Translations under genes and position numbers: made by a program
The notes under the pieces: generated by a model
The model's database searches: none
What the model was told of the DNA's origin: nothing
What the model saw: the letters and a program-made list of their open reading frames with translations, nothing else
Shown here: positions 1 to 12,650 of the stretch, piece by piece
Numbering within the stretch: position 1 is the first letter of the stretch
Layout: each line of letters begins with the position of its first letter
Source of the DNA: a virus
Lineage: Duplodnaviria; Heunggongvirae; Uroviricota; Caudoviricetes
Virus record (IMG/VR): IMGVR_UViG_2850756110_000008
Strand: one strand, 5' to 3'
Length of the DNA: 12,650 bases

Positions 1-294
1 GTGGCGCACGTCTTCGGTGAACGCACTCTGGCCACACTGGAGCGTCTTCTGAGCCTGCTGTCGGCCTTTGAGGTCGTGGTATGGATGACGGATGGCTGGC
101 CGCTGTATGAATCACGCCTGAAGGGAAAGCTGCACGTTATCAGCAAGCGTTACACTCAGCGCATTGAGCGACATAATCTGAATCTGAGACAACATCTGGC
201 AAGGCTGGGACGGAAGTCACTGTCGTTCTCAAAATCGGTGGAGCTGCATGACAAGGTCATCGGGCATTATCTGAACATAAAACACTATCAGTAA
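1..294 (+). CDS. insB: IS1 transposase InsB, C-terminal fragment (5' end outside window)
   Basis: Translation ...[70 protein letters not shown] is near-identical to the InsB C-terminus from memory. Confidence 0.9.
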
Positions 295-309
295 GTTGGA
301 GTCATTACC
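1..309 (+). mobile_element. IS1, right-end portion (element continues upstream of window start)
   Basis: ORF 1..294 is the C-terminal 97 aa of IS1 InsB. Its stop codon lies inside a terminal repeat ATCAGTAAGTTGGAGTCATTACC at 287-309 that matches the IS1 inverted repeat as I recall it. Confidence 0.9.
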
Positions 310-321
310 CAAGTAAATAAA

Positions 322-341
322 AACCCGCTCAACAGCGGGTT
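322..341 (-). terminator. Rho-independent terminator (tR'-like) downstream of the Q gene
   Basis: An 8-bp stem (322-329 pairing 334-341) with a 4-nt loop; on the minus strand it is followed by TTTATTTACTT. It lies about 110 nt downstream of the Q stop codon. Confidence 0.6.
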
Positions 342-374
342 CGTGAAAATTATCAACGGCAGACATACAAAGCC

Positions 375-416
375 CATCGTTGAGAAAATCTTATCCATGT
401 TTTTTGAAAAATGCAA
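375..416 (-). promoter_or_regulatory. Late promoter PR'-like with qut-like pause element
   Basis: On the minus strand: TTGCAT (plus 416-411), 17-bp spacer, TAAGAT (plus 393-388), then AACGAT at about +1 to +6. This resembles the -10-like sigma-dependent pause element of lambda PR' as I recall it. Position immediately after Q is as expected. Confidence 0.45.
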
Positions 417-447
417 GCTTCATGTCGCCATCTTCGGCGAAAATCAC

Positions 448-1200
448 TTATCTCGTCACCTTTCTCAATTGTGTTTCAGCATATGCTTCTTCCTGCCAGC
501 ACTTTGTTACTAGTTTATCAATTACGTCTGCATATCCTTTGTACCACTGATAATCAGTCAGGTCTGGAACCAGCTTCTGGACATGACGTCGTGCCAGTGT
601 AGTTGGTAAACGGCTAAACCGGTTTCCATTGCAACGCCCACAAATCTTATAAACAGGCGTGCCATGAAGCCGGGTCCTTTTTTCATCCAGGACAATACCT
701 TTACCCTTACACCCTCTGCACGCTGTGCTGACTTCTCCCTTACCATGACAATGCTGACATAGTTCCTTCACCCACTCTTCCTTGATAACAGATTCCCCGC
801 TTCTGGAGTGTTTCACCACCTCGCGCAATACATTATGAAATCCAGTACCAGCACAATGCTCACAGCGAGCCTTACTTGCCGCAGACCTAGAATAATCAGC
901 AAAGGCAAAATTCACAAGGTAAGGAATGATCTGTAGCCGGGTTTCTTCACTCAATTTATTCAATGTCGGGTTATCCAGTGCCATCGCGTAATTGAGCAGA
1001 CCTTCAATCGCAAACTGAGGATCCTGAACACCAACTTTTGCCAGGAATAAGGCAAACCCAAGCGGTGCTTTCGACTGCACCATCCCCTGCGCAGCCATCA
1101 CATCCGTAATCGTTAAACCACCAGAGCCTGTCGCCGGTGCGTCATCGCTCAGTTTTGGAGATTTCGGGGAGTAATATTTCGGTAAGGCTTCAAGGTTCAT
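448..1200 (-). CDS. Q: Lambdoid antitermination protein Q (82/Qin-type, 250 aa)
   Basis: 250-aa ORF with GGAG 7-8 nt upstream of ATG. Cys/His-rich zinc-binding region (CEHCAGTG...CQHCHGKGE...CRGCKGKG...CGRCNG) and overall resemblance to prophage Q homologues (QuuQ-like). Located at the end of the nin operon, before PR'/tR'. Confidence 0.85.
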   Translation of the reverse strand: MNLEALPKYYSPKSPKLSDDAPATGSGGLTITDVMAAQGMVQSKAPLGFALFLAKVGVQDPQFAIEGLLNYAMALDNPTLNKLSEETRLQIIPYLVNFAFADYSRSAASKARCEHCAGTGFHNVLREVVKHSRSGESVIKEEWVKELCQHCHGKGEVSTACRGCKGKGIVLDEKRTRLHGTPVYKICGRCNGNRFSRLPTTLARRHVQKLVPDLTDYQWYKGYADVIDKLVTKCWQEEAYAETQLRKVTR

Positions 1201-1213
1201 GCTCGTTCTCCAC

Positions 1214-1924
1214 TTACGCCAGTACGCCTATTGCCAGCGCACGATCGATAAAACGAAATATCAGCTCCAGCTGGGAACCATACTTCTCTTCAAATGCCAC
1301 GGTATCCGCATGCAGCTCGTCGTGATGCTTTCTGCACAAAGGCAACACAAAGAGGTCATGCGCTTTTGTACCCATTCCCCCCTGACCGTGGCCTATCAGG
1401 TGGAGGGGATCATCAGCAGGCTTTCCACAACATGCACACGGCTGTGTCTTAACCCAGCGTGTGTACTTTTCATTAACCCAGCGGCGACGTTTTGGGCGTA
1501 ACATAAAAGACTCCGGCGACTCCGGATCCACTTTCAGCGCCAGCACCTTTTTCACCTTATCCTGGATGATGCTGGTGGCAGGAACCGAAGGCACAAGGTC
1601 ACTTTCCCGGGTGACAGACGGCACAACAGGCTTCGGTAATCTCAGTGCCTTACGGGCTGCACTTTCCGGTAAGGCATCCGCCAGGTCATTACGAATCAGC
1701 CACCAGCACAGTTCCGGCATTGTCACAACGTGACTATCATCAAAACCGAGATCCCGACGCACAACAGACAACACCCAGCGGGCACAGTTATCCGTTGCCA
1801 TTGATTCCAGCCGTTCCGTGAACTGATCGCGCAGCTGGTTATCGCAGTGCCAGCACAGACGGATTGCGCCGGCGCGTGTCGCATTGTTGTCATGTTCTCG
1901 CTGTGCCAGTCGGAATGAGGCCAC
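1214..1924 (-). CDS. YdfU/DUF968-like phage protein, C-terminal part (HNH-like Zn motif); apparently frameshifted relative to 1723..2166
   Basis: C-terminus CACCGKPADDPLHLIGHGQGG...LCRKHHDELH is typical of the DUF968 family found just upstream of Q in Qin-like prophages. The ORF opens with GTG at 1924 with no plausible RBS, and its first 39 codons look like genuine protein (CWHCDNQ). Confidence 0.6.
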   Translation of the reverse strand: MASFRLAQREHDNNATRAGAIRLCWHCDNQLRDQFTERLESMATDNCARWVLSVVRRDLGFDDSHVVTMPELCWWLIRNDLADALPESAARKALRLPKPVVPSVTRESDLVPSVPATSIIQDKVKKVLALKVDPESPESFMLRPKRRRWVNEKYTRWVKTQPCACCGKPADDPLHLIGHGQGGMGTKAHDLFVLPLCRKHHDELHADTVAFEEKYGSQLELIFRFIDRALAIGVLA

Positions 1925-2166
1925 TGGCAGCCTTTTTCACGAAGTAACCAGCTTTCAAGACATTCCACGCCACCAGCACGACGGATCACTGCCTCATTGC
2001 GGAACACGGCCCGAACGTCAGGATCATCCGCCAGCGGTTGTGATGCCGCCGGAACAGCACCACTGGCGAAAGATGAATAACGTTCCGGCTCAGGCTCCAG
2101 CAGGACACGCCCCTGCATAAACAGGGGCATCAGCTCTGAACTTGGTCTGAACAATACGATCCCCAT
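1723..2166 (-). CDS. N-terminal fragment of the same DUF968-like gene (different frame)
   Basis: Begins 40 nt after the KilA-N gene stop. The first ~85 residues look protein-like; downstream of about 1920 the frame becomes Cys-rich low-complexity junk, while the other frame opens at 1924. Likely a single gene with a 1-nt indel near 1895-1925. Confidence 0.4.
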   Translation of the reverse strand: MGIVLFRPSSELMPLFMQGRVLLEPEPERYSSFASGAVPAASQPLADDPDVRAVFRNEAVIRRAGGVECLESWLLREKGCQWPHSDWHSENMTTMRHAPAQSVCAGTAITSCAISSRNGWNQWQRITVPAGCCLLCVGISVLMIVTL

Positions 2167-2208
2167 ACGCGGGGCAATTTCAGGGGCAGTAGTGCTCTCA
2201 CGGTCACC

Positions 2209-3006
2209 TCAATGAACGGTATCGAGCAGCTTTAACAGCTCAGGGAATCGGGATTCGAAGAAATGCGGCTGCGTCTCACGCGGATTTGCGGGACTGGTGA
2301 TATTCTTGCCGAACATGCAGCCTTTCGCTGTCAGCGACCAGAATTTTTTGATGTTGTTAATCGCTGTACGGCTGTATCGTTCGCGCTGTTCGACGATCCC
2401 CAGCTTCGCCATCTGGTGATATGCCTGATTAGCCGTAAGGCGGATACCATACTGCTTCAGCAGTGCACTCAGTGACAGCGTGGGGCGGCTTGAGCCATCA
2501 GGCGCGTCAGCAGGAGCATCAATGGCATAGCGCGGTGCCAGATTCGGTAAGCCAACAGCCTCCTGGAGTTTCTGACAGGCTCCAAGCACTGAAGAGTTAG
2601 ACAGGTTTAATTCCCGGCGCATAAAGTCCAGCAGAATCACACCAGCCTGCATCTTGTCAGCAGTCTGTCCGGATAATTTTTCCGGTGCACTGGTTACCAT
2701 GTCGAAAGTACGGATCACCTTCAGATGGAATGACGGGCTGATCCACATTGCATAGGCATACACCAGTTCTTTGCAGACATACGTCCCTTGGTTATTTCCG
2801 CCACGAATAACGTTAACTGGTTCTATATTGACCGAGTTGCAAATCTGCAACTCGCTTATTAAACGTTCAGTTTGCTCATTGCGGAGCCAGAATGCAGGCT
2901 TATGCTTATCCAGAGAACCAGCAGCCCTGTGCAGATCGTTCAGGCTGTAACGCCCATAAGCATCACGACGAACTTCAATTCCATCAATAACCATCAGATT
3001 ATTCAT
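2209..3006 (-). CDS. KilA-N domain protein (Roi/antirepressor-like)
   Basis: N-terminus MVIDGIEVRRDAYGRYSLNDLHRAAG...GTYVCKELVYAYAMWISPSFHLKVI fits the KilA-N DNA-binding domain pattern. Position between rusA and Q is typical of lambdoid nin regions. Confidence 0.75.
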   Translation of the reverse strand: MNNLMVIDGIEVRRDAYGRYSLNDLHRAAGSLDKHKPAFWLRNEQTERLISELQICNSVNIEPVNVIRGGNNQGTYVCKELVYAYAMWISPSFHLKVIRTFDMVTSAPEKLSGQTADKMQAGVILLDFMRRELNLSNSSVLGACQKLQEAVGLPNLAPRYAIDAPADAPDGSSRPTLSLSALLKQYGIRLTANQAYHQMAKLGIVEQRERYSRTAINNIKKFWSLTAKGCMFGKNITSPANPRETQPHFFESRFPELLKLLDTVH

Positions 3007-3025
3007 ACTTCGTTTCTCCTCTTAA

Positions 3026-3415
3026 TCAGGCTGCTGCACCCGCCGGTTTCTCGTACTTACTGATAGTGATCTCGACCTTCCCTTCCGGGATAACCGGTCC
3101 CCACTCCACCAGCATTCTTTTCACCTGACTGTCGTCTTCCCACACACCCGCGTGGGTCAGGGCGTCAAACAGCGCCTTGTTATAGTTGTTCAGATCGCGG
3201 ATCCGGTTATCCGGAGGAAACAACACGATCTCCACTGAAGCAGGTGCCGACGTTGGTTTTGGCAGACGACGTAACTGCTCAACTATTGCTGCACACGCCG
3301 CGCTCTGGAATTTGCGCCCCGCTGCGCTTATCAGGCTCTTACCAGCAAACGCCCCTTTGTTGGGGTGTCGCCAGTACGTGTTCACGCTGGGCGGAAAAGG
3401 CAGTATTAGCTTCAT
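3026..3415 (-). CDS. rusA: Crossover junction endodeoxyribonuclease RusA (Holliday junction resolvase)
   Basis: Motifs LPFPPSVNTYWR and DLNNYNKALFDALTHAGVWEDDSQV match the RusA family. Start overlaps the upstream stop as ATGA. Confidence 0.85.
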   Translation of the reverse strand: MKLILPFPPSVNTYWRHPNKGAFAGKSLISAAGRKFQSAACAAIVEQLRRLPKPTSAPASVEIVLFPPDNRIRDLNNYNKALFDALTHAGVWEDDSQVKRMLVEWGPVIPEGKVEITISKYEKPAGAAA

Positions 3416-3738
3416 ACTTTCAGGCCCCTCTCATGTAACCAGTGGGCTGCACGCAGCTTGGCGTTTTCCTCACCGGCAAGCAGTGAGCGGATAATCCCGA
3501 CCGCCTCGCTGTCGTCGTCCTTCACCGCGGTATGAAGAGTGATACCACGGGCCACACCACGCTTTATCGTGATGACGCCTTTTTTCTCCAGTGCTCTAAG
3601 ATGCTCCACCGCTGCATTCACTGAACGGTATCCCAGCATGGTTGCCACCTCCTGATTGGTTGGCGGGAAGCCACGTTCTTTCTGGTAAGAAATCAGCATA
3701 TCCAGCACCTGCTGCTGGCATTGAGTTAACGTCGTCAT
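3412..3738 (-). CDS. LexA N-terminal DNA-binding-domain-only protein (no peptidase domain)
   Basis: The 108-aa product aligns by eye with the LexA winged-helix domain (LTxxQQxVxDxI......GxPPTxxExAxxLGxRSxNAAxEHLxALxxKGVIxIxxGxxRGIxL). It lacks the Ala-Gly cleavage site and Ser/Lys peptidase domain. ATGA overlaps with both neighbours. Confidence 0.75.
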   Translation of the reverse strand: MTTLTQCQQQVLDMLISYQKERGFPPTNQEVATMLGYRSVNAAVEHLRALEKKGVITIKRGVARGITLHTAVKDDDSEAVGIIRSLLAGEENAKLRAAHWLHERGLKV

Positions 3739-4388
3739 GCCGCCATCTCCCTGACAAGTTTTTCTGCCTGCTGGCGAACTTGCGCCAGAAAGGCCTCACC
3801 ACATGCCTCAAGTTCATCGCGCCCGATGTAGCTGATTGCCGGTCCCTTCCAGGTCTTGTCGAAAACGGCAATAGCACCAGCGAAGAAAGCACCGGTTGGC
3901 ACCTGCTTCTCGTCTTTCGGGATAAACCAGGCAGGCAGTTCAAAACCAATACGCCCGCGAATAAAAGCAATATGATCCGCATCTTCCGGCCACCACACTT
4001 CGCTGGTGGCAGCTTTGATCAGGAAAACATAGCGCCCGCCCTTATCACGCATGGCACTGGCATGTTTCATGATGTAACGCATGCCGGTGATGTATTGCCC
4101 CTCATGCTGACTGGCGCGGCTGTATGGAGGATTTCCAAAGGCAGCACCTTTAAGCTCCGCAAGACGTTCTGACCAGTCATGCGCCAGCGCGTTGTCTTCC
4201 GCCGTGTAATACGCGGCACATTTGGCGTTATCACCGTCAGTAAACAGATCCAGAACAAACGGGCCAAACAGGGTGTTAATTCCCCAGAAAATGTTGTCCG
4301 GTGTGCGCCACTGATCGCCCACTTCCTTCAGTTCATGGGCTGGTTTGTTTCGCAACTCCACCAGCGCCTGGCAATATTTATTACTCAT
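3735..4388 (-). CDS. Phage Dam-type DNA N6-adenine methyltransferase
   Basis: Catalytic NPPY motif (GNPPYSRA) and overall similarity to phage Dam (PF05869-type) proteins. Start taken at the ATG at 4388, which overlaps the upstream stop (TAATG), rather than the ORF-track start at 4421. Confidence 0.8.
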   Translation of the reverse strand: MSNKYCQALVELRNKPAHELKEVGDQWRTPDNIFWGINTLFGPFVLDLFTDGDNAKCAAYYTAEDNALAHDWSERLAELKGAAFGNPPYSRASQHEGQYITGMRYIMKHASAMRDKGGRYVFLIKAATSEVWWPEDADHIAFIRGRIGFELPAWFIPKDEKQVPTGAFFAGAIAVFDKTWKGPAISYIGRDELEACGEAFLAQVRQQAEKLVREMAA

Positions 4389-4882
4389 TAAGCCCCCACG
4401 TAATTCCCTGACAGATACCACTCATCACCCGATACAGCGCGCTTGCTGCTTTTCCGTAAGCACCGCTCACGACGCGCCAGAAAATTGTTTCGTTCTGGCT
4501 GGGAGTGGCTTTCACGGAATGCCGCCATCCACACCGTTGCAGCACGACGGTATAAGCCCCTGGACTCCAGTTCTTCAGCCTGGCGGGTCAGGCACAAAAT
4601 CACCCGGGGACCGTTAGTGCCGACATAGAAATTGCGCACAGGTCTGGTTTCTCGAACTGATTGTGGTCCCGGTTCCTGCGCTCTCTCAGTCAGGCGCGGG
4701 AAATGTCTGCGTGTATCTCCTTCACAACGGTGAGCCACACGCCCACTCTGACGTAACTTGCTTGCAGACTGCAGAACGCGCTGCCGTGAGTAACCTGCAA
4801 AAGCATCCGCAATGTCTCCGGAAGTACACCCCGGATGGGCTTCAATGAATTTCTGAACGTCATTCAAAAGACTCATGCTCAC
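4388..4882 (-). CDS. PerC/Pch-like regulator with N-terminal winged-helix-like region
   Basis: C-terminal half carries AEELESRGLYRRAATVWMAAF, the same motif as the PerC-like ORF at 10141 (AEELESKGLYRRAAARWMEVM). Start is either GTG at 4882 or ATG at 4876. Translationally coupled to neighbours. Confidence 0.6.
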   Translation of the reverse strand: MSMSLLNDVQKFIEAHPGCTSGDIADAFAGYSRQRVLQSASKLRQSGRVAHRCEGDTRRHFPRLTERAQEPGPQSVRETRPVRNFYVGTNGPRVILCLTRQAEELESRGLYRRAATVWMAAFRESHSQPERNNFLARRERCLRKSSKRAVSGDEWYLSGNYVGA

Positions 4883-5445
4883 CCCCTGAATCCTGCCGGG
4901 ATCTGGCTGTAGTCCACGTTGTCGTAACTGGCTTTGAAGTACGGGTCTTCACGTTTTTCTGTGTGCGTGCTGACGGACGGCGATAAGCGCAGGGAAAGCT
5001 CATCCCATTTTTCCCGCAACTTCGACGGGCTGAGCACGTTACGGCACCAGAACGGATCGCGGCTGACGCGGCTGTACATCTCGCAGATTTGTTTGTGAGT
5101 ACGGCCATCCTGTACACACATCAGGCGAATTTCGTTTGCCCAGGCTGTCCAGTTCGGTTCTTTGGGACGAACCACCTCGCCGTCACATTCGGCAGCCTGC
5201 TCGTACAGGGCGATGATTTTTTTCCAGAGCCACTGTGCGCAGGTCAAATCATCCTGCGTCCCCCACTGGCGCTTTTTAGGGCTGAATACAACCGCATCAG
5301 GATGGCGAGTTAAAAAATCCTGTTCAGCCGTCTGCGTGTCCGGTTGCGAAGCGTCCGGACGAGAAGGTTTTTTATCTGACGGATCATGTTTTGATTTTAC
5401 TGACGGATCCCCGCCAGATTCTGACGGGTGAAAACCCGCTTTTTT
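4879..5445 (-). CDS. Phage early/nin-region protein, 5'-truncated by IS66-family insertion (function unknown)
   Basis: The ORF runs open up to and into the IS66 terminal repeat (the track's TTG start at 5460 is inside IS sequence). Translation is protein-like (…CAQWLWKKIIALYEQAAECDGEVV…). First gene of the coupled operon. Confidence 0.5.
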   Translation of the reverse strand, partial: KKAGFHPSESGGDPSVKSKHDPSDKKPSRPDASQPDTQTAEQDFLTRHPDAVVFSPKKRQWGTQDDLTCAQWLWKKIIALYEQAAECDGEVVRPKEPNWTAWANEIRLMCVQDGRTHKQICEMYSRVSRDPFWCRNVLSPSKLREKWDELSLRLSPSVSTHTEKREDPYFKASYDNVDYSQIPAGFRG

Positions 5446-5482
5446 GTAAGCGTGCAGCAAGAACCGTATTGACGGGGATGTG

Positions 5483-7021
5483 TTATTCAGTCGGCAGTGC
5501 TACGCGCCAGGGGAGCAGTTCGCCGACCCGGTTTATCGGCCAGTCGGCTATGACGTCAAGGACATAGCGGAGGTAGCTTTCTGGCTCCACTCCGTTCAGT
5601 TTGCACGTCCCGATCAGGCTGTACAGCAGCGCTCCCCGCTCTCCTCCATGATCCGAACCGAAGAACAGGTAGTTTTTGCGGCCCAGACTGACCATCCGCA
5701 ACGCATTTTCAGCGATGTTATTGTCCGCCTCAGCCCAGCCATCATCTGCATAGTACGTCAGCGCCGGCCACTGGTTCAGGGCGTATGCGAACGCTTTCGC
5801 CAGTTCTGAGTGTCGCGACAGGGTTTTCATCTTTTCACGCAGCCAGCTTTCCAGGGATTTCAGCAGCGGTTTCGTTTTCAACTGACGTTCGGCAAGGCGC
5901 TGCTCCGCCGTCATTCCCCTTATCTCTGCCTCGATGGCGTACAGTTCGCCGATCCGTTTCAGCGCTTCCTCCGTCAGGGCTGACGGGGTGCGAACGTGCA
6001 CATCGTGGATTTTACGGCGGGCGTGAGCCCAACAGGCGGCTTCCGTTATCCGGCCATCCCGGTACAGCTCGTTGAACCCGGCGTATGCATCCGCCTGCAG
6101 TACACCACTGAACCCCGCAAGATGGGTCTGCGGATGGATGCCTTTTCTGTCCGGGCTGTAAGCGAACCACACCGCCGGCGCCAGCGTTGACCCGGCGTTA
6201 CGGTCGTCACGAACGTAGGTCCATAACCGCCCGGTCTTCGTTTTCTTATTGCCTGGCAACAGCACCGGGACAGGCGTGTCATCAGCATGGAGCTTACCGT
6301 CAGTCAGCACATAGTCCTGAAGCGCTTCTTCCAGCGGTGACAGTAGCCGGCAGCATGCATCCACCCAGCCCGACAGCAGTGAACGACTCAGCTCCACGCC
6401 CTGGCGGCCGTACATTTCAGACTGGCGGTACAGCGGGGTGTGCTCTGCATACTTTGAGATCAGCACGCGGGCCAGCAGCCCCGGTCCTGCGATACCCCGC
6501 TCGATGGGCCGTGAAGGCGCGGGGGCCTGCACGATGGCATCGCACTGAGTACAGGCATGCTTTTCACGTACAGTCCGGATAACCCGGAAGACGCTGCGCA
6601 TCAACTCCAGCTGTTCGGCGGCATCCTCACCCGGATAGCTCAGTGAGCCTCCACATTCCGGGCAGCATGACGCTGCCGGCAGCAGCCGTTTTTCATCGCG
6701 GGGGAGTGATTCGGGGAACGGTTTGCGGGTGCGGGTTTGACGCAGCGGGCGCTGCACGGCCGGGTCGTCAACCCGACCGGTAAGGGTATCACTTTCTTTC
6801 TGAAGTGCCTTCAGGTCAGCTTCCATCTGTGCGATACGACGGGAGACTTTTTCGGAGCGGCTGCCGAAGTTCATCCGGCGCAGCTTATCCAGCTGTGCCT
6901 GCAGATGGTCTATTTCGCGTTCACGCTCGTTCAGCTTTTCCAGCAGGGCACGGTTCAGCGCCTCCTGTTCGGCAAGGAGACGTTTCAGTGCATTGATATC
7001 GTCAGGAAGTGAGCTGCTCAT
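5483..7021 (-). CDS. IS66-family transposase (TnpC/orf3)
   Basis: 512 aa with N-terminal coiled-coil/leucine zipper, CxxC...CxxC zinc finger (CPECGG...CTQC) and conserved LHADDTPV and TGRLWTY motifs. Confidence 0.9.
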
Positions 7022-7069
7022 ACCGGGTATATTACCAGGCTCATTCAGCGTCGACCAGGATAAAGAGGC

Positions 7070-7417
7070 TTACAACATAGTCAGGGACGTAAGCAGTCTT
7101 TTAGGCTGCCGCCAGTCGATACCTTCAAGGAGCATCGCCAGCTGTGCCGGTGTGAGGAACACTTTGCCATCCCGGGCTGACGGCCAGGCGAAGCGGCCGC
7201 GCTCCAGCCGTTTGGTCAGCAGACACAGTCCATCGCCGGTAGACCAGAGGAGCTTTACCTGACTGCCATTACGCCCACGGAAGATAAAAACGTGACCTGA
7301 CATCGGATCGTCTTTCAGCGTCGTCTGCACCTTTGCCGCCAGGCCGTTGAAGCCATTTCTCATATCGGTGATACCGGCAACCAGCCAAATTTTGGTCCCG
7401 GAAGGTAACGGGATCAT
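7070..7417 (-). CDS. IS66 Orf2 (TnpB) accessory protein
   Basis: 115-aa protein (…LVAGITDMRNGFNGLAAKVQ…LWSTGDGLCLLTKRLERGRF…) typical of the IS66 orf2 family. ATGA overlap with orf1. Confidence 0.85.
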   Translation of the reverse strand: MIPLPSGTKIWLVAGITDMRNGFNGLAAKVQTTLKDDPMSGHVFIFRGRNGSQVKLLWSTGDGLCLLTKRLERGRFAWPSARDGKVFLTPAQLAMLLEGIDWRQPKRLLTSLTML

Positions 7418-7794
7418 CGCTTCAGTTCCTGTATCAGCAGAGTCAGGAGCTTTTCGCTGACATTGCCATTGAAGCGGAGCGTCCCGTGCCGGAACGTTAC
7501 CTCACAGCTGATACTGAGGGTTTCCGGATCCTCTGCGAGCGATTCTGGCTGTTCGGCAGCTGCATCGAGAGTCACAGGAAGTAGCTGGGGGCTCTCTGAA
7601 GAAGGTAATAGCAGCTTTCCCTCGCGCCATTGTTGTCGCCATTTGAACAACAGATTGGCGTTAATGCCATTTTCAAGAGCAAGTTTTGAGATGGATATCC
7701 CGGGTTCACAGGAGGCAGCAACGAGCTGCTGTTTAAATTCGGGAGGATAATTAGGGCAGCCTTTTCGCCTGCCGGGATTCACATTTTTCTGCAT
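7414..7794 (-). CDS. IS66 Orf1 (TnpA) accessory protein
   Basis: Helix-turn-helix-like small protein in the first position of the IS66 operon. ATG at 7794 (MQKNVNPGRRK…) preferred; the ORF-track start at 7815 is a GTG. Confidence 0.8.
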   Translation of the reverse strand: MQKNVNPGRRKGCPNYPPEFKQQLVAASCEPGISISKLALENGINANLLFKWRQQWREGKLLLPSSESPQLLPVTLDAAAEQPESLAEDPETLSISCEVTFRHGTLRFNGNVSEKLLTLLIQELKR

Positions 7795-7946
7795 ATCTGA
7801 CACTTTGGTTCCCACTACTTATTTGGTGGACACCACTTTGTCTAATTCGTCAGATTCTGACCAGACGGTTCAGGCTGTACGCTGATATGACTTTCCGTGT
7901 CAAACCGGAATCTCTAATTTTGACGATTTTCTTTTTAGGTTTAATT

Positions 7947-8129
7947 CCCTGAGGGCGACGTAGCAGTAAATCCGACGGTGAATCACGCTGATATTCGCGG
8001 GTTGGATACCGCATTACAGAGGTCCGTCATATGAGCCTGCCACTTTCTTACGTCGCGAATCAGCTTTGTTCCGCCGTCGCCAAGCGCTAACGTGGGTTAC
8101 TCTTGTACCGGGCTACGTCGCCTTCAGGG
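7947..8129. ncRNA. Candidate IS110-family bridge-RNA-like structured noncoding element (strand undetermined)
   Basis: An 18-bp inverted repeat (7947-7964 CCCTGAGGGCGACGTAGC; 8112-8129 GCTACGTCGCCTTCAGGG, one G/U-compatible mismatch) encloses 147 nt. Inside, ACGCTGATAT (7985-7994) is identical to the 10 nt spanning the IS66-terminus/IS110-end junction (7879-7888). Confidence 0.3.
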
Positions 8130-8148
8130 AACTGGTTATTCTCATTTT

Positions 8149-9276
8149 TTATTTGTGACATTGTGGTTGTTGTGCGACAGACATTGCTATTCGGCCCATA
8201 TCCCAGATAAAACCCGCCAGCTCACGTGCAACAGCAACAATTGTAATATTGACATTCTTTCCTTTGGCCTGAAGTTTTCGATACCTCTTACAGAGCCTGA
8301 GTTGAGCATCCCATGCTCTGTCAATGACGGGGCGGGGTAAATTTTCCTGCCTTTTTTGTATTGCCGGACTGATGCGTGCCGGATGACGGTAACTCCACGC
8401 TGCCTCGACCAATAGCTTTCTGGCATAGCTGTTTCCGGCTTTGGTAATGCTGCCCTGATGTCTGCTTCCACCCGATGAATATTCTGATGGCGTGATACCA
8501 AACCATGACATCAGTTGTCGTGGATGTTCAAAACGGGTCAGATCACCCAGTTCAGAAATTAATCCAACCGCAGTAATAAACTGAATCCCTCGCATGGCTT
8601 GCAGCGCCTCTACTACCGGATACAGCCTCCATTCGGTAACGGCCTCCTTCAGGGCGGATTCCAGCCGTTCACATTGTGCCTGCCGGTCTTCTATTGTACG
8701 ACGGTGTTCGTCAAAAGCTAATTGTCGCCAGGGACTTTCGAATGAGTATTTGCTGAGCCAGCGTCGGTGTGCAGGGCCCCAATCTGCTCGCCCGACATAA
8801 TGGACCCCATGAACCAGAAGAAACGATTTCAGACGTTGCCTTGCATGCCGTAAATCATCGCGGGCAGATGCCCATGCCCGGGCCAAATCCCGGAATGCCT
8901 CATCTTCAATGCCGGGTACGTAGACAGCAGAAAGATCTCCTGCACGCAGTGAACGCACAAGTCTGATGGCATCACGGCGATCGGTTTTAACCCGCTCCCC
9001 CGGTTTTTTCGGGATAAGTGAGGGGGCGCAGACCATGCAGTCAAAACCGGATTTCACCAGCCGACGATAAAGTCCATAACCACAGGGCCCCGCTTCATAA
9101 ACGATACTGACCTGCGATGACTTTGACCTGAGACGTTTACAAAGATTCTGAATATCAGTAGGTGATGTGCCAATTTTACCCATCAGTTCAACAGGTTCTG
9201 AATTGATAGCATAAGCGACAGTAATCGATTCTTTGTGAACATCTAACCCGACGTACAATGTGTTATTGTTGTTCAT
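8149..9276 (-). CDS. IS110-family transposase / DEDD recombinase
   Basis: 375 aa from the ATG at 9276, with GGAGG 7 nt upstream. N-terminal RuvC-like DEDD motifs (YVGLDVHK, IVYEAG, KTDRRDA) and C-terminal Tnp domain with conserved Ser (GITPSEYSSGGS). The ORF track extends the start to 9324, which lacks an RBS. Confidence 0.85.
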   Translation of the reverse strand: MNNNNTLYVGLDVHKESITVAYAINSEPVELMGKIGTSPTDIQNLCKRLRSKSSQVSIVYEAGPCGYGLYRRLVKSGFDCMVCAPSLIPKKPGERVKTDRRDAIRLVRSLRAGDLSAVYVPGIEDEAFRDLARAWASARDDLRHARQRLKSFLLVHGVHYVGRADWGPAHRRWLSKYSFESPWRQLAFDEHRRTIEDRQAQCERLESALKEAVTEWRLYPVVEALQAMRGIQFITAVGLISELGDLTRFEHPRQLMSWFGITPSEYSSGGSRHQGSITKAGNSYARKLLVEAAWSYRHPARISPAIQKRQENLPRPVIDRAWDAQLRLCKRYRKLQAKGKNVNITIVAVARELAGFIWDMGRIAMSVAQQPQCHK

Positions 9277-9426
9277 GCTGGCCTCCGTGGTGGAAATACC
9301 GGGGGGTAGCAACAGCTCACCCATGCGGCTCTGACAACGATGTTAACCCGCGTTAAATATCCCACGTTGGCCAGCATCTGTCTCACGGAAAGTCATACTG
9401 CCTTACTTTCCAATGGGCACTCATGT

Positions 9427-9882
9427 TTATACGCTGACCTTACAATCAATCACCGCTTTTAAATTTTCAGCATTGCTTCCCTGACGCTTCCACGCGCTGT
9501 AAATATCTTTATCCCACGCTTTACCAGCTTTTGTTTGATAGCCTGCTTCATTGATCCGTTCAGCTATCACACGCCCATTATCAAATCCCTGTTGGATGGT
9601 ATCGGCAATGATCTTTATAACTGCCGTTTCGTTATATGGCTTTGGTGGGATGTTCGGCTTTCCGGCAATAAGCGACGCAGCGGCTTTTTCCATGCGCTCC
9701 ACCAGCCCAAGCATTCGTGAATCAATAGACTTTTCCGGCTGTCCCAGCTTCATGCGAATCGCATCAACAAGCCAGGAGGTTTTATCCCCTCCAGAAGCGA
9801 GAACAGACCGATTAAACTCATCCTGCAATTCAGATGGGATGCGGAACGCGATCAGATTAGATTTGCTCATTGCAAAGACCAT
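9427..9882 (-). CDS. Hypothetical protein, possibly ribbon-helix-helix (Arc-like) DNA-binding at the N-terminus
   Basis: 151-aa protein-like ORF divergent from the PerC-like gene. N-terminus NLIAFRIPSELQDEFNRSVLASGGDKTSWLVDAIRMKL resembles RHH folds. A palindromic operator-like site lies 20-50 bp upstream. Stop is 30 bp from the IS110 end, so the C-terminus may be altered. Confidence 0.5.
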   Translation of the reverse strand: MVFAMSKSNLIAFRIPSELQDEFNRSVLASGGDKTSWLVDAIRMKLGQPEKSIDSRMLGLVERMEKAAASLIAGKPNIPPKPYNETAVIKIIADTIQQGFDNGRVIAERINEAGYQTKAGKAWDKDIYSAWKRQGSNAENLKAVIDCKVSV

Positions 9883-9899
9883 ATCAGTGAGTAATATCC

Positions 9900-9931
9900 A
9901 TACAGTATACCACTGTATAACACTGTTATAC
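9900..9931. promoter_or_regulatory. Overlapping palindromic operator-like sites upstream of the 151-aa gene
   Basis: ATACAGT-N5-ACTGTAT (9900-9918) and a perfect 17-bp palindrome GTATAACA-C-TGTTATAC (9915-9931). A minus-strand TATACT -10-like hexamer overlaps. Confidence 0.4.
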
Positions 9932-9983
9932 GCTCAAATATCAGCCAGAAAATAACGGACCAATCACAAAGCTATCGCTGTGT

Positions 9984-10104
9984 TGTTGGTTCAGAGCTGG
10001 GCTGTGTTGGTTCAAAATGAGTTGATGTTGGTTCAATATTTTAGAAAAACATAATAAAAACAACGATCTTTACAAATTGAACCAACTGAACCAACTGAAC
10101 CAAC
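9984..10104. repeat. Iteron-like array: six copies of GTTGGTTCA (3 direct at 21-bp spacing, 42-bp AT-rich spacer, 3 inverted in 9-bp tandem)
   Basis: TGTTGGTTCA at 9984-9993, 10005-10014 and 10026-10035. AT-rich 10036-10077. TGAACCAAC at 10078-10086, 10087-10095 and 10096-10104. Confidence 0.7.
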
Positions 10105-10135
10105 ACCTTTTTGCTTATCTATATAATCTGAGAGG
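10096..10135 (+). promoter_or_regulatory. Putative promoter and RBS of the PerC-like gene, overlapped by the inverted repeats
   Basis: Perfect TATAAT at 10122-10127 and GAGAGG at 10130-10135 before the ATG at 10141. The -35 region coincides with the TGAACCAAC repeats. Confidence 0.3.
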
Positions 10136-10140
10136 CAGAA

Positions 10141-10422
10141 ATGATAAGGGACAGGAAAGCTGAAGAGCTGGAGTCAAAAGGGCTATACCGGAGAGCTGCC
10201 GCACGATGGATGGAAGTCATGCTGTTATGCACCGAGGACGATGATCGGGAATGGATAAAGCGCCGCCGTGAAACGTGTCTGGAGAACGTGAAGCGCCCGC
10301 CCGTGAAGGTTGAGGAATTTGGCGACCTGCATAAAGCTGTTACCGAAACGCAACACCGCATGGGGATAGCGCAACCGAACGGTAACGCCTTCCGGTTAAA
10401 TGGCGGCAAGAGGCAAAGGTAG
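10141..10422 (+). CDS. PerC family transcriptional activator-like protein
   Basis: 93 aa with the N-terminal motif RDRKAEELESKGLYRRAAARWMEV characteristic of PerC/Pch proteins as I recall them. Good RBS. Confidence 0.7.
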   Translation: MIRDRKAEELESKGLYRRAAARWMEVMLLCTEDDDREWIKRRRETCLENVKRPPVKVEEFGDLHKAVTETQHRMGIAQPNGNAFRLNGGKRQR

Positions 10423-10718
10423 ACCACCAGAGGGAAATCATCCTCTGGCTGGCGGTTTCTGGTATTTCGGGACAAGTACGCGCGCGCGTAGCACCCAATC
10501 GGTGAGGAAATAGCGGCGACCTGAATGGTCAAAATCACAACGCAGCTATCCCCGTAAGCAGCGCTTAACGGAATAGCAGTAACCTGAATCCAGTGGGGAG
10601 GGGTAGTCAAATCTCTACAGCCCTGACTATCCGGGACTGCCCGCCCCATCGTTTTTTTATACCCGCGAAAAATGAAATTTAATCCGGGCGTGTTTCATCC
10701 TTCCAGAGGGTATGACGT

Positions 10719-10904
10719 ATGACACCACGCGAAATAGCCTTATTGACCATCGCCAAACTTGAGCACGGAGGCCACCAGCTTACACAGGCAGATCAACGGG
10801 AGATAGAACGATCAGTTAATGCCGATATAGCCCGGCGCGACAGGTTCCGCGAAATGATGCGAGCACCTGCCTACCAGTGGAAGAAGCCAGCGCCGCGCAG
10901 GTAG
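10719..10904 (+). CDS. Hypothetical small protein (61 aa)
   Basis: GAGGG 8 nt upstream of ATG; charged helical-looking product; no family recognised. Confidence 0.4.
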   Translation: MTPREIALLTIAKLEHGGHQLTQADQREIERSVNADIARRDRFREMMRAPAYQWKKPAPRR

Positions 10905-11024
10905 ATATGGGATTATTCCACATGTACCTTATGCGTATTAAGCAAATTTCCTTTATTCACCTTTACAGAATTGTGAGTACGTCAGTATCGTTATCCTTCC
11001 GATTCGCATTTATTCAGGATTTGC

Positions 11025-11567
11025 ATGTACCAGCTAAAGATAACCATCCGAGACAGCAAACCACCTATATGGCGGCGTGTGCTGGTTCCAGAGCAAATCC
11101 CCTTTAGTAAACTTCATGCCGTGATCCAGTTAGCTTTTGGCTGGAATGACGAACACCTGTATATGTTCGAGAAAGGGCGTAAAGGTGATCCAGGTAGCGA
11201 GTATCGCGTATGGGGTGAGGATGAAAGCATGGGTAACGCGGCAATCACGCCACTATGGGCGGCGCTCCAGAATGAGGGTGACAAGCTGGTTTACACGTAT
11301 GACTTTGGCGACTGGTGGGATTGCGTCATTGTGCTGGAGAAGCAAACACACGATACGAGTAATCAGCCCATTAGCTGCCTGCGTGGGAAAGGCACCACCC
11401 CGGCGGAAAACTCAGGCGGCTTGCATGGTTACAATGAATTGCTATTACAGGCCAGAGAGTCTGATAATCCTGAGCAGGCCGAGATCCACAATTTCCTGAT
11501 GCTGGATATTGAACGCCGGGTTTACGACCTGAGCCGCATCAACGACAGATTGCAGGCTATTAACTGA
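11025..11567 (+). CDS. Plasmid pRiA4b ORF-3-like family protein
   Basis: N-terminus MYQLKITIRDSKPPIWRRVLVPEQIPFSKLHAVIQLAFGWNDEHLYMF matches the conserved start of PF07929-type proteins as I recall them. Confidence 0.65.
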   Translation: MYQLKITIRDSKPPIWRRVLVPEQIPFSKLHAVIQLAFGWNDEHLYMFEKGRKGDPGSEYRVWGEDESMGNAAITPLWAALQNEGDKLVYTYDFGDWWDCVIVLEKQTHDTSNQPISCLRGKGTTPAENSGGLHGYNELLLQARESDNPEQAEIHNFLMLDIERRVYDLSRINDRLQAIN

Positions 11568-11919
11568 CCCGCATGTATTCACCTGATATTGCGTTGTCAG
11601 CGCCGCCAGTATCGCGCATAACAGCGCACTGACCGGGTAAACCGTAGCGCACGACCGTTGCGTTAGTATCACCGCCGCGCCGTATCTGGCGCGATTCATA
11701 CACTGTCACCCGCTCAAGCAGTCCACCAGCAACCATGCTTTCCAGTGTGCGCCGGGTTGATTCGAGCTGGTGACGCTTATCGAACGACACCATGCCATGA
11801 AGCAGGTAGGCCACACCCGACACATCGAACGGCGGCGCACCAATCTCACCAGTCACCCATTCGAGGTTATCCGGTTCAAAGTAGCTAAGTATCTCTTTTT
11901 TGCGACTGGTCATTCTCAT
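11560..11919 (-). CDS. Hypothetical protein (119 aa), convergent with and overlapping the previous gene by 8 bp
   Basis: Protein-like composition; AGGA 11 nt upstream of ATG at 11919; no family recognised. Confidence 0.45.
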   Translation of the reverse strand: MRMTSRKKEILSYFEPDNLEWVTGEIGAPPFDVSGVAYLLHGMVSFDKRHQLESTRRTLESMVAGGLLERVTVYESRQIRRGGDTNATVVRYGLPGQCAVMRDTGGADNAISGEYMRVS

Positions 11920-12146
11920 GGCTGGCTGATTCCTTATTGTGGGATAGCACTATCATACAATAAGTGGGTTAAAGGGAGAGCGTTACCGCCTGATATGCTG
12001 TATGAATAACAACCAAATTTCAGGGGCGGAAAAAGATATGGGGGTACTTTTGGGGGTATCTATAAAAAATGAACAATAAAAAAGGCAACAAAAACAAAGC
12101 TTATCGCCTATGTGTATTGTTCCTATTATCCATTTAAATCAATAAG

Positions 12147-12650
12147 TTACACATCATTAGTACGTTCCTTATTTCTTGACTGGGACAAATTTGGGACCGA
12201 TGGGTTCAGAATCGAGTCTATTTGCCGTGCGTGTTCGGTAAGGTGATTAGGTGCGAGGTGAGCATATCGACGAACCATTTCGATAGACTCCCAGCCTCCC
12301 ATTTCCTGTAACACTGATAACGGGACTCCGGCTTGAACCAGCCAACTTGCCCAGGTGTGTCTCAAGTCGTGAAATCTGAAATCATCAATACCTGCTCGTC
12401 TCAGCGCCGCTTTCCAGGCTGTGTTTGCGTCATACCGCATCTTCCTGACTGTTGGCGCTTTCGTTCCGTCTGGTTTGGTACAGCTTTCCTTATACACAAA
12501 TACCCAACGGTGATGATTCCCGATTTGTTTTTTCAATACGCGACATGCAGTATCATTCAGCGCAACGCCAATTGCGCGGTTTGATTTACTCTCTTCCGGG
12601 TTTATCCATGCCACCCGGTGAGGTGTACTGGCAATAGCGGACACTACCAT
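12147..12650 (-). CDS. Tyrosine-type phage integrase, C-terminal catalytic domain (5' end beyond window)
   Basis: Conserved HDLRHTWAS (His-x-x-Arg) and catalytic Tyr context EMVRRYAHL. The ORF is open to the window edge. Confidence 0.9.

Follow-up and report, generated by a model that had tools for sequence, protein, structure and literature searches.

A Q-PR'-tR' block next to IS1 in a Shigella chromosome is very probably one half of a prophage split by an inversion

Introduction

In phage λ, the gene for the antiterminator Q, the promoter PR', a pause element, and an intrinsic terminator lie one after another ahead of the late genes. PR' is constitutive in lambdoid phages, with a transcript that ends at tR', and PR'-tR' RNAs can act as regulators (PMC7547250). 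The role of the λ pause element, which includes GGG at +7 to +9, has also been described (PMC5001585). Q proteins fall into separate families, with Qλ in PF03589, Q82 in PF06323, and Q21 in PF06530 (PMC9388147). The locus studied here has close counterparts in Qin of E. coli K-12 (ydfT/quuQ) and in phages SfV, Ayreon, and mEp460. In these elements, phage or moron genes and then a lysis cassette come after the terminator: cspF/cspB and then essQ in Qin, and orf47-48 and then S-R-Rz in SfV.

Members of the IS1 family are about 768 bp long with terminal inverted repeats of about 23 bp, and a simple insertion is flanked by a 9-bp direct target duplication. IS1-mediated inversions and deletions in Shigella leave a complete IS1 without a direct repeat at its ends and reciprocal junctions with swapped flanks. 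In the inversions, two copies in inverted orientation bracket the inverted segment.

Here we describe a 12,650-bp stretch of DNA (the window, meaning the whole stretch analyzed), in which a Q gene, its promoter region, and a terminator adjoin IS1. An earlier sequence-only reading held that IS1 had replaced the late region of the prophage. We conclude that the window is very probably one half of a prophage split by IS1-mediated inversion in a Shigella chromosome. It shares the features of the Shigella inversions described above and differs from them in no respect of kind, its one peculiarity being the position of a breakpoint 10 bp past the late terminator of a phage.

Results

The Shigella chromosome CP026805.1 is identical to the window at 12650/12650 bases (100% identity). 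Further Shigella chromosomes with the same architecture were found by look-up of window-encoded proteins, and the host lineage is Shigella, the window being part of an S. boydii/S. dysenteriae lineage chromosome. The ground beyond the window edge was read from CP026805.1; the window itself ends inside IS1. Its phage DNA is an orphan block of 5.1 kb (310-5445), bounded by IS1 on one side and IS66 on the other. The prophage resembles SfV and has relatives that are integrated at thrW. Over 5.1 kb, the block is 98.3% identical to the prophages of E. coli ECONIH4 and 0H26, and the closest intact prophage is that of 0H26, at tRNA-Thr (thrW) beside proA. It is not a complete inducible lambdoid prophage: there are no repressor, lysis, or structural genes in 310-5445, and no early promoter is left there.

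The Q gene (448-1200, minus strand) is intact and encodes 250 aa. Its product is 100% identical to Q of intact prophages and matches PF03589 (E = 4e-54; 181 bits versus a cut-off of 26.7) and, over both halves, the Qλ structures PDB 7UBM/7UBN (E = 8.2e-39). The Q82 family (PF06323) was considered and rejected, because Pfam gave only PF03589 and a weak DnaJ CxxC match. The pause layout of phage 82, with the element about 9 bp further downstream and a pause at +25, does not fit either, as the element is at the λ position. The "82-type" label given by the sequence-only reading must therefore be dropped. PF03589, PDB 7UBM, and the λ pause element AACGATGGG assign this Q by sequence to the Qλ family and not the Q82 family. 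The corrected typing applies to a widespread Q, which includes Qin ydfT, that of SfV, and matches in records of Stx2c-converting phages. Compared with λ Q (207 aa), the protein has an insertion of about 38 aa, at residues 121 to 158 or so, with an extra CxxC-type motif. This motif gives a sub-threshold DnaJ_CXXCXGXG match.

The PR'-like late promoter (388-416, minus strand) has a -35 hexamer TTGCAT (416-411), a 17-bp spacer, and a -10 hexamer TAAGAT (393-388). A simple consensus promoter scan did not flag it; the -35 hexamer matches at 3/6 positions. Both hexamers are invariant in about 25 relatives, functional phages among them, and the promoter is predicted to be active. A T-to-C change at position 399 (position -18, in the spacer) occurs in every strain with the IS1 junction but in none of about 20 phages and intact relatives. 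The pause element AACGATGGG (373-381, minus strand) is identical to the sigma-dependent pause element of λ PR' (-10-like AACGAT plus GGG), and the spacing would put the transcript start at about base 381. The tR'-like intrinsic terminator (311-342, minus strand) consists of the stem-loop GAACCCGCTGTTGAGCGGGTTT (342-321) followed by TTATTTACTT. A terminator scan found a hairpin of 9 pairs and then the T-run TTATTTACTT, and RNA folding agrees. SfV and Ayreon records have a terminator annotated at the homologous position. It is conserved in seven aligned relatives, and homology between different phages stops right after the T-run. An RNA of about 60 nt is probably made from PR' and ended at this terminator.

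The module resembles that of λ in its Q family and in the order Q, promoter, pause element, and intrinsic terminator. The promoter has the same -35/17 bp/-10 geometry as λ PR', and the 11-mer TCAACGATGGG lies at an equal distance from the -10 hexamer in both. This 11-mer takes in the -10-like pause element and GGG at +7 to +9 (from an alignment of seven relatives, with the λ sequence read directly). However, the spacer, which is the site of the Q-binding element (QBE) in λ, is unrelated in sequence. The terminator is also much nearer the start (about 40 to 60 nt, versus about 190 nt in λ), and no late genes follow it. The whole ydfU(DUF968)-Q-promoter-terminator block is homologous to those of Qin (about 91% identical) and of SfV, Ayreon, and mEp460 (about 96% identical), but here IS1 and, past it, a host gene come after the terminator. 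StxS and λ 6S RNA are short RNAs that start at PR' and stop at tR' in lysogens, and the promoter-terminator arrangement here would likewise yield a short constitutive RNA (PMC7547250). However, there is no sequence relation to either, Rfam had no match in the window, and the RNA here is a prediction.

The right end of IS1 occupies positions 1-309 (plus strand), which are 309 bp of the complete 768-bp element. It includes the last 97 codons of the insB' frame (1-294, plus strand), an open reading frame that matches PF03400 (IS1 transposase; E = 6e-51), and the terminal inverted repeat IRR (287-309), which closes with ...GTTGGAGTCATTACC at 309. The 309-bp part is a 100% match to annotated IS1 and is identical to copies in thousands of E. 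coli records. It looks like a fragment because the window ends inside it, and it had been taken for one, but the copy in CP026805.1 is a complete 768 bp. The full element runs from GGTAATGCTGCC... to ...GGAGTCATTACC (read in loci L007-9 and L052). It has an intact insA (91 aa), an open insB' frame, and the A6C -1 frameshift slip site TTAAAAAACTC. In length, terminal repeats, insA/insB' frames, A6C site, and transposase domain, the element is a member of the IS1 family.

The flanks of this IS1 are GAATTTATG and CAAGTAAAT, so there is no 9-bp direct duplication. One copy of CAAGTAAAT is at 310-318, with no twin at the other end of the element. Instead, twins of GAATTTATG and CAAGTAAAT each adjoin other IS1 copies. 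The differing flanks, with their twins elsewhere, show that this IS1 is a recombinant junction and not a simple insertion. Homology to intact prophages (the best E. coli matches being ECONIH4, 0H26, and others) starts exactly at base 310. This alignment had been proposed as the way to find the breakpoint, and it does so. The earlier description of an intact Q, PR' region, and tR' with IS1 right after the terminator holds up. Its 13-bp gap between IS1 and the hairpin is also fair, being 13 nt to the G+C core and 11 nt to the longest stem. IS1 was found at exactly this site in 0/5,426 complete E. coli genomes. A look-up of the 97-aa InsB' ORF was uninformative about other IS1 contexts because the isoform is too abundant, being listed in 22,125 blocks of the collection.

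In CP026805.1 and at least nine relatives, the other end of IS1 adjoins chromosomal hyi, cut at codon 35. The outer flank is hyi' ...GTTGAATTTATG and the phage-side flank is CAAGTAAAT..., with the duplication absent, and gcl, allR, allA, allS, and selU lie beyond hyi'. These findings bear on whether IS1 simply inserted with the lysis cassette right behind it, outside the window. E. coli NRZ96606 offers a precedent, as it keeps its late genes with an IS1 near Q, 227 bp further downstream. However, there are no lysis genes behind IS1 in CP026805.1. Hyi codons 35-1 and gcl are there instead, as in the relatives, which refutes a simple insertion of this kind and leaves it practically no probability. 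The claim that nothing phage-derived follows was therefore correct, as hyi' and gcl lie beyond IS1. A look across the far IS1 end had been suggested as a check. That end has neither a matching duplication nor lysis genes, but both the duplication and late genes were found at a second, inverted IS1 (see below).

A 43-aa hyi'-IS1 fusion ORF was found in 432 contigs named S. boydii (including CDC 3083-94) or S. dysenteriae. UGER01000001.1 (locus L056, 5227-5994) has a simple IS1 insertion in hyi codon 35 with a perfect 9-bp duplication of GAATTTATG, and this is the older state of the locus. Its IS1 is at the same site and in the same orientation but is a different isoform (91.5% identical). The site may be an insertion hot spot that took up IS1 on two occasions, or gene conversion may have exchanged one IS1 isoform for another. 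The C-terminal Hyi fragment M35-R258 was tried as a marker, but its exact sequences in E. coli are alternative gene calls, and L056 alone was informative. When hyi'-IS1 junctions were compared (loci L081, L083, L085, and L088), the IRR side of hyi::IS1 joined four partners across strains: the rest of hyi, fdrA/allF, the folD side, and phage tR'-Q. In strains other than that of the window, the same copy has a deletion running to fdrA or another inversion to folD. Rearrangements have recurred at the hyi::IS1 copy, which acts as a node for them.

In intact relatives, the first gene past Q-tR' encodes a 111-aa protein, and holin, lysozyme, Rz, HNH, terminase, and head genes come after it. A variant of this 111-aa first late protein bears S. 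dysenteriae names, and its look-up gave loci (L071-L078) with the order folD, IS1, the 111-aa gene, holin, a truncated lysozyme gene, and an IS3-family element. In these loci, ATTTACTTG, which is CAAGTAAAT read as its reverse complement, comes directly after IRL of IS1. The junction reads ...GTGTTTCAGTA CAAGTAAAT|IRL-IS1-IRR|CCTAACCTTCGC, with CCTAACCTTCGC on the folD side, and is carried by CP026840.1, CP026842.1, PSSQ01000001.1, and PSST01000003.1. The twin CAAGTAAAT beside IRL was seen in L071-78, L089, and L090. The phage part of this late half is 99.8% identical to ECONIH4 over 954 bp, and its IS1 differs from the junction IS1 of the window lineage (read in L052) at 2/768 bases.

Both halves share one contig in PSSQ01000001.1 and PSST01000003.1, where the two IS1 copies are inverted and about 193.5 kb apart. 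In PSST01000003.1, they are at about 1,979,732-1,980,499 and 2,173,949-2,174,716, and PSSQ01000001.1 is arranged likewise. The precursor junction hyi'|IS1|CCTAACCTTCGC (folD) is present in CP026866.1 and CP026811.1. The starting junctions are hyi' with the folD side and late-CAAGTAAAT with CAAGTAAAT-tR'-Q, and the product junctions are hyi' with CAAGTAAAT-tR'-Q and late-CAAGTAAAT with the folD side. The four flanks form a reciprocal set. Such a set points to two steps: IS1 inserted simply, and two IS1 copies in opposite orientation then recombined and inverted the DNA between them.

The sequence-only reading favored instead a replacement or deletion of the lysis and late genes, and an IS1-promoted adjacent deletion from hyi::IS1 to behind tR' would be one way to lose them all. 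Nothing phage-derived lies past IS1 locally, and the two 9-bp flanks differ, as this would predict. Adjacent deletion has also occurred at the same hyi::IS1 elsewhere, where hyi'-IS1 is joined to fdrA/allF (L083 and L085). However, no second target 9-mer is left after an adjacent deletion, whereas close relatives still carry CAAGTAAAT, together with the first 954 bp of the late region, next to an inverted IS1. The other flank of that late-half IS1 is the former partner of hyi', so that a deletion is contradicted in PSST01 and PSSQ01. Furthermore, given the orientation of the thrW prophage in E. coli 0H26, hyi' is inverted relative to Q, which a deletion cannot bring about. We consider a deletion unlikely. 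Of the original claim, the local lack of late genes stands, but in relatives the matching CAAGTAAAT with the first late genes is about 193 kb away.

An assembly error that wrongly linked two contigs through the repeated IS1 is less probable still, with only a slight chance of being correct. The abundance of the isoform (22,125 blocks) invites such an error, as repeats of this sort do cause misjoins. However, the junction is base identical in CP026805, CP026807, CP026823, CP026834, CP045784, PSST01, PSSQ01, and UYIT01, which are independent chromosome-scale assemblies, and the reciprocal junction is also consistently assembled.

The late half was not located in CP026805.1, as the look-ups that found it returned other strains. 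Since it was seen only in these, inversion in the window's own strain is inferred from the base-identical Q-side junction and the close relatives. An uninterrupted Q-tR'-IS1-late genes intermediate was absent from every collection searched, including E. coli genomes and genome, viral, and metagenome contigs. Exact-pattern scans for the predicted reciprocal junctions found none in genome_contigs, viral_contigs, or metagenome_contigs, from which Shigella genomes are likely absent. The sole matches were three viral_contigs loci with the Q-side junction. The junction IS1 has no hybrid signature and is a uniform member of the common isoform. For this reason, the flanks are what points to crossing-over inside IS1.

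The rest of the orphan block (1214-5445, minus strand) was analyzed by Pfam scan, per-gene comparison, and indel positions. All of its genes are on Q's strand: a DUF968 gene, KilA-N, RusA, a LexA-DNA-binding protein, Dam, a PerC-like protein, and an O-like replication gene that lacks its first 125 codons. The DUF968 (ydfU-like) gene (1214-2202) is frameshifted by a 1-bp deletion near 1868, and its length varies among relatives (329, 236, or 220 aa). These differing states suggest that the gene is still decaying, separately in each relative.

The O-like gene is truncated by an IS66-family element (5446-7883 plus 9402-9406, minus strand), which was defined by Pfam scan, ends, and flanks. Its flanks, GCTTTTTT and TTTCCAAT, show no 8-bp target duplication, so that both elements bounding the block, IS1 and IS66, are without one. 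An IS110-family element (7884-9401, minus strand; 1518 bp), also identified by Pfam scan, encodes a 391-aa transposase with PF01548 and PF02371 and interrupts the IS66-family element 5 bp into its terminal inverted repeat. It is present in L052 and absent from L007-9 and L044-47, and CP026805.1 is its sole carrier among the relatives examined. By its gene calls, CP026828.1 (L093) has an N-terminal O-like fragment (PF13730, 128 aa) and then IS66 tnpA, beside the late-half remnant. This arrangement suggests that IS66, too, arrived by simple insertion and that the two halves came apart later. The remainder of the window (9407-12650) is a separate island. It carries a 151-aa ORF, a PerC-family gene, a PRiA4_ORF3 protein, and a 119-aa ORF, together with the 3' part of a tyrosine integrase gene. 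That integrase part shares 99.6% identity with the integrase of the thrW prophage in E. coli 0H26. The island occurs in E. coli within the thrW-proA region or beside P22-like satellite remnants (L015 and L043).

Discussion

The evidence for an inversion suggests the following order of events. IS1 would first have inserted 10 bp past the late-terminator T-run and duplicated 9 bp, ATTTACTTG in phage orientation (CAAGTAAAT on the window's plus strand); the footprints of this insertion are seen. A different IS1 copy had by then linked the hyi 5' stub (codon 35) with the folD side, a state that survives in CP026866.1 and CP026811.1. As both reciprocal products indicate, the two inverted IS1 copies would then have recombined, inverting about 193 kb. 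One product would be hyi'-IS1-tR'-PR'-Q, to which the window belongs, and the other would be folD-IS1-(111-aa gene, holin, lysozyme'). In relatives, the rest is seen to have been lost to other IS elements: the lysozyme gene is cut by an IS3-family element and the replication gene by an IS66 element, which also took away the early region. It was therefore not IS1 to which the late region was lost, as had been claimed; the bulk of the late genes was lost at a different IS junction, the one inside the lysozyme gene.

Late-gene expression and lysis from this element should now be impossible. The only candidate drivers of Q expression would be read-through from the same-strand IS66 and IS110 transposase genes. 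As the sequence-only reading anticipated, a Q-modified transcript would run antisense to IS1, through insAB, and we infer that it would continue into hyi'-gcl-allR-allA.

Might the Q-PR'-tR' cassette nevertheless have been kept because it is useful, co-opted for a constitutive small RNA like StxS of Stx phages or for Q-driven antisense transcription across IS1 and the gcl-all operon? The Q protein is 100% conserved next to a DUF968 gene with independent frameshifts, PR'-tR' RNAs can be regulatory (PMC7547250), and read-through is conceivable with all upstream genes and the IS66/IS110 transposase genes on Q's strand. If so, antisense transcription by a terminator-resistant RNA polymerase would damp IS1 transposition or the expression of glyoxylate/allantoin genes. 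However, with at least 99.86% DNA identity among them, the strains are too close for conservation to be read as a sign of selection, no Rfam family matches, and the promoter spacer carries a lineage substitution. We regard co-option as very unlikely.

A prophage split by inversion, the reading that we prefer, is a case of ordinary IS-driven prophage and genome decay in Shigella, which is already known, and it has little significance beyond annotation. It does carry a caution: an IS without a target duplication beside a truncated prophage need not mean a deletion, because the missing half may be hundreds of kilobases away. Sequenced strains still retain all three states: the precursor junction and the two reciprocal products. 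The locus is a clean, fully reconstructed case of IS1 scrambling Shigella chromosomes and dismantling prophages.
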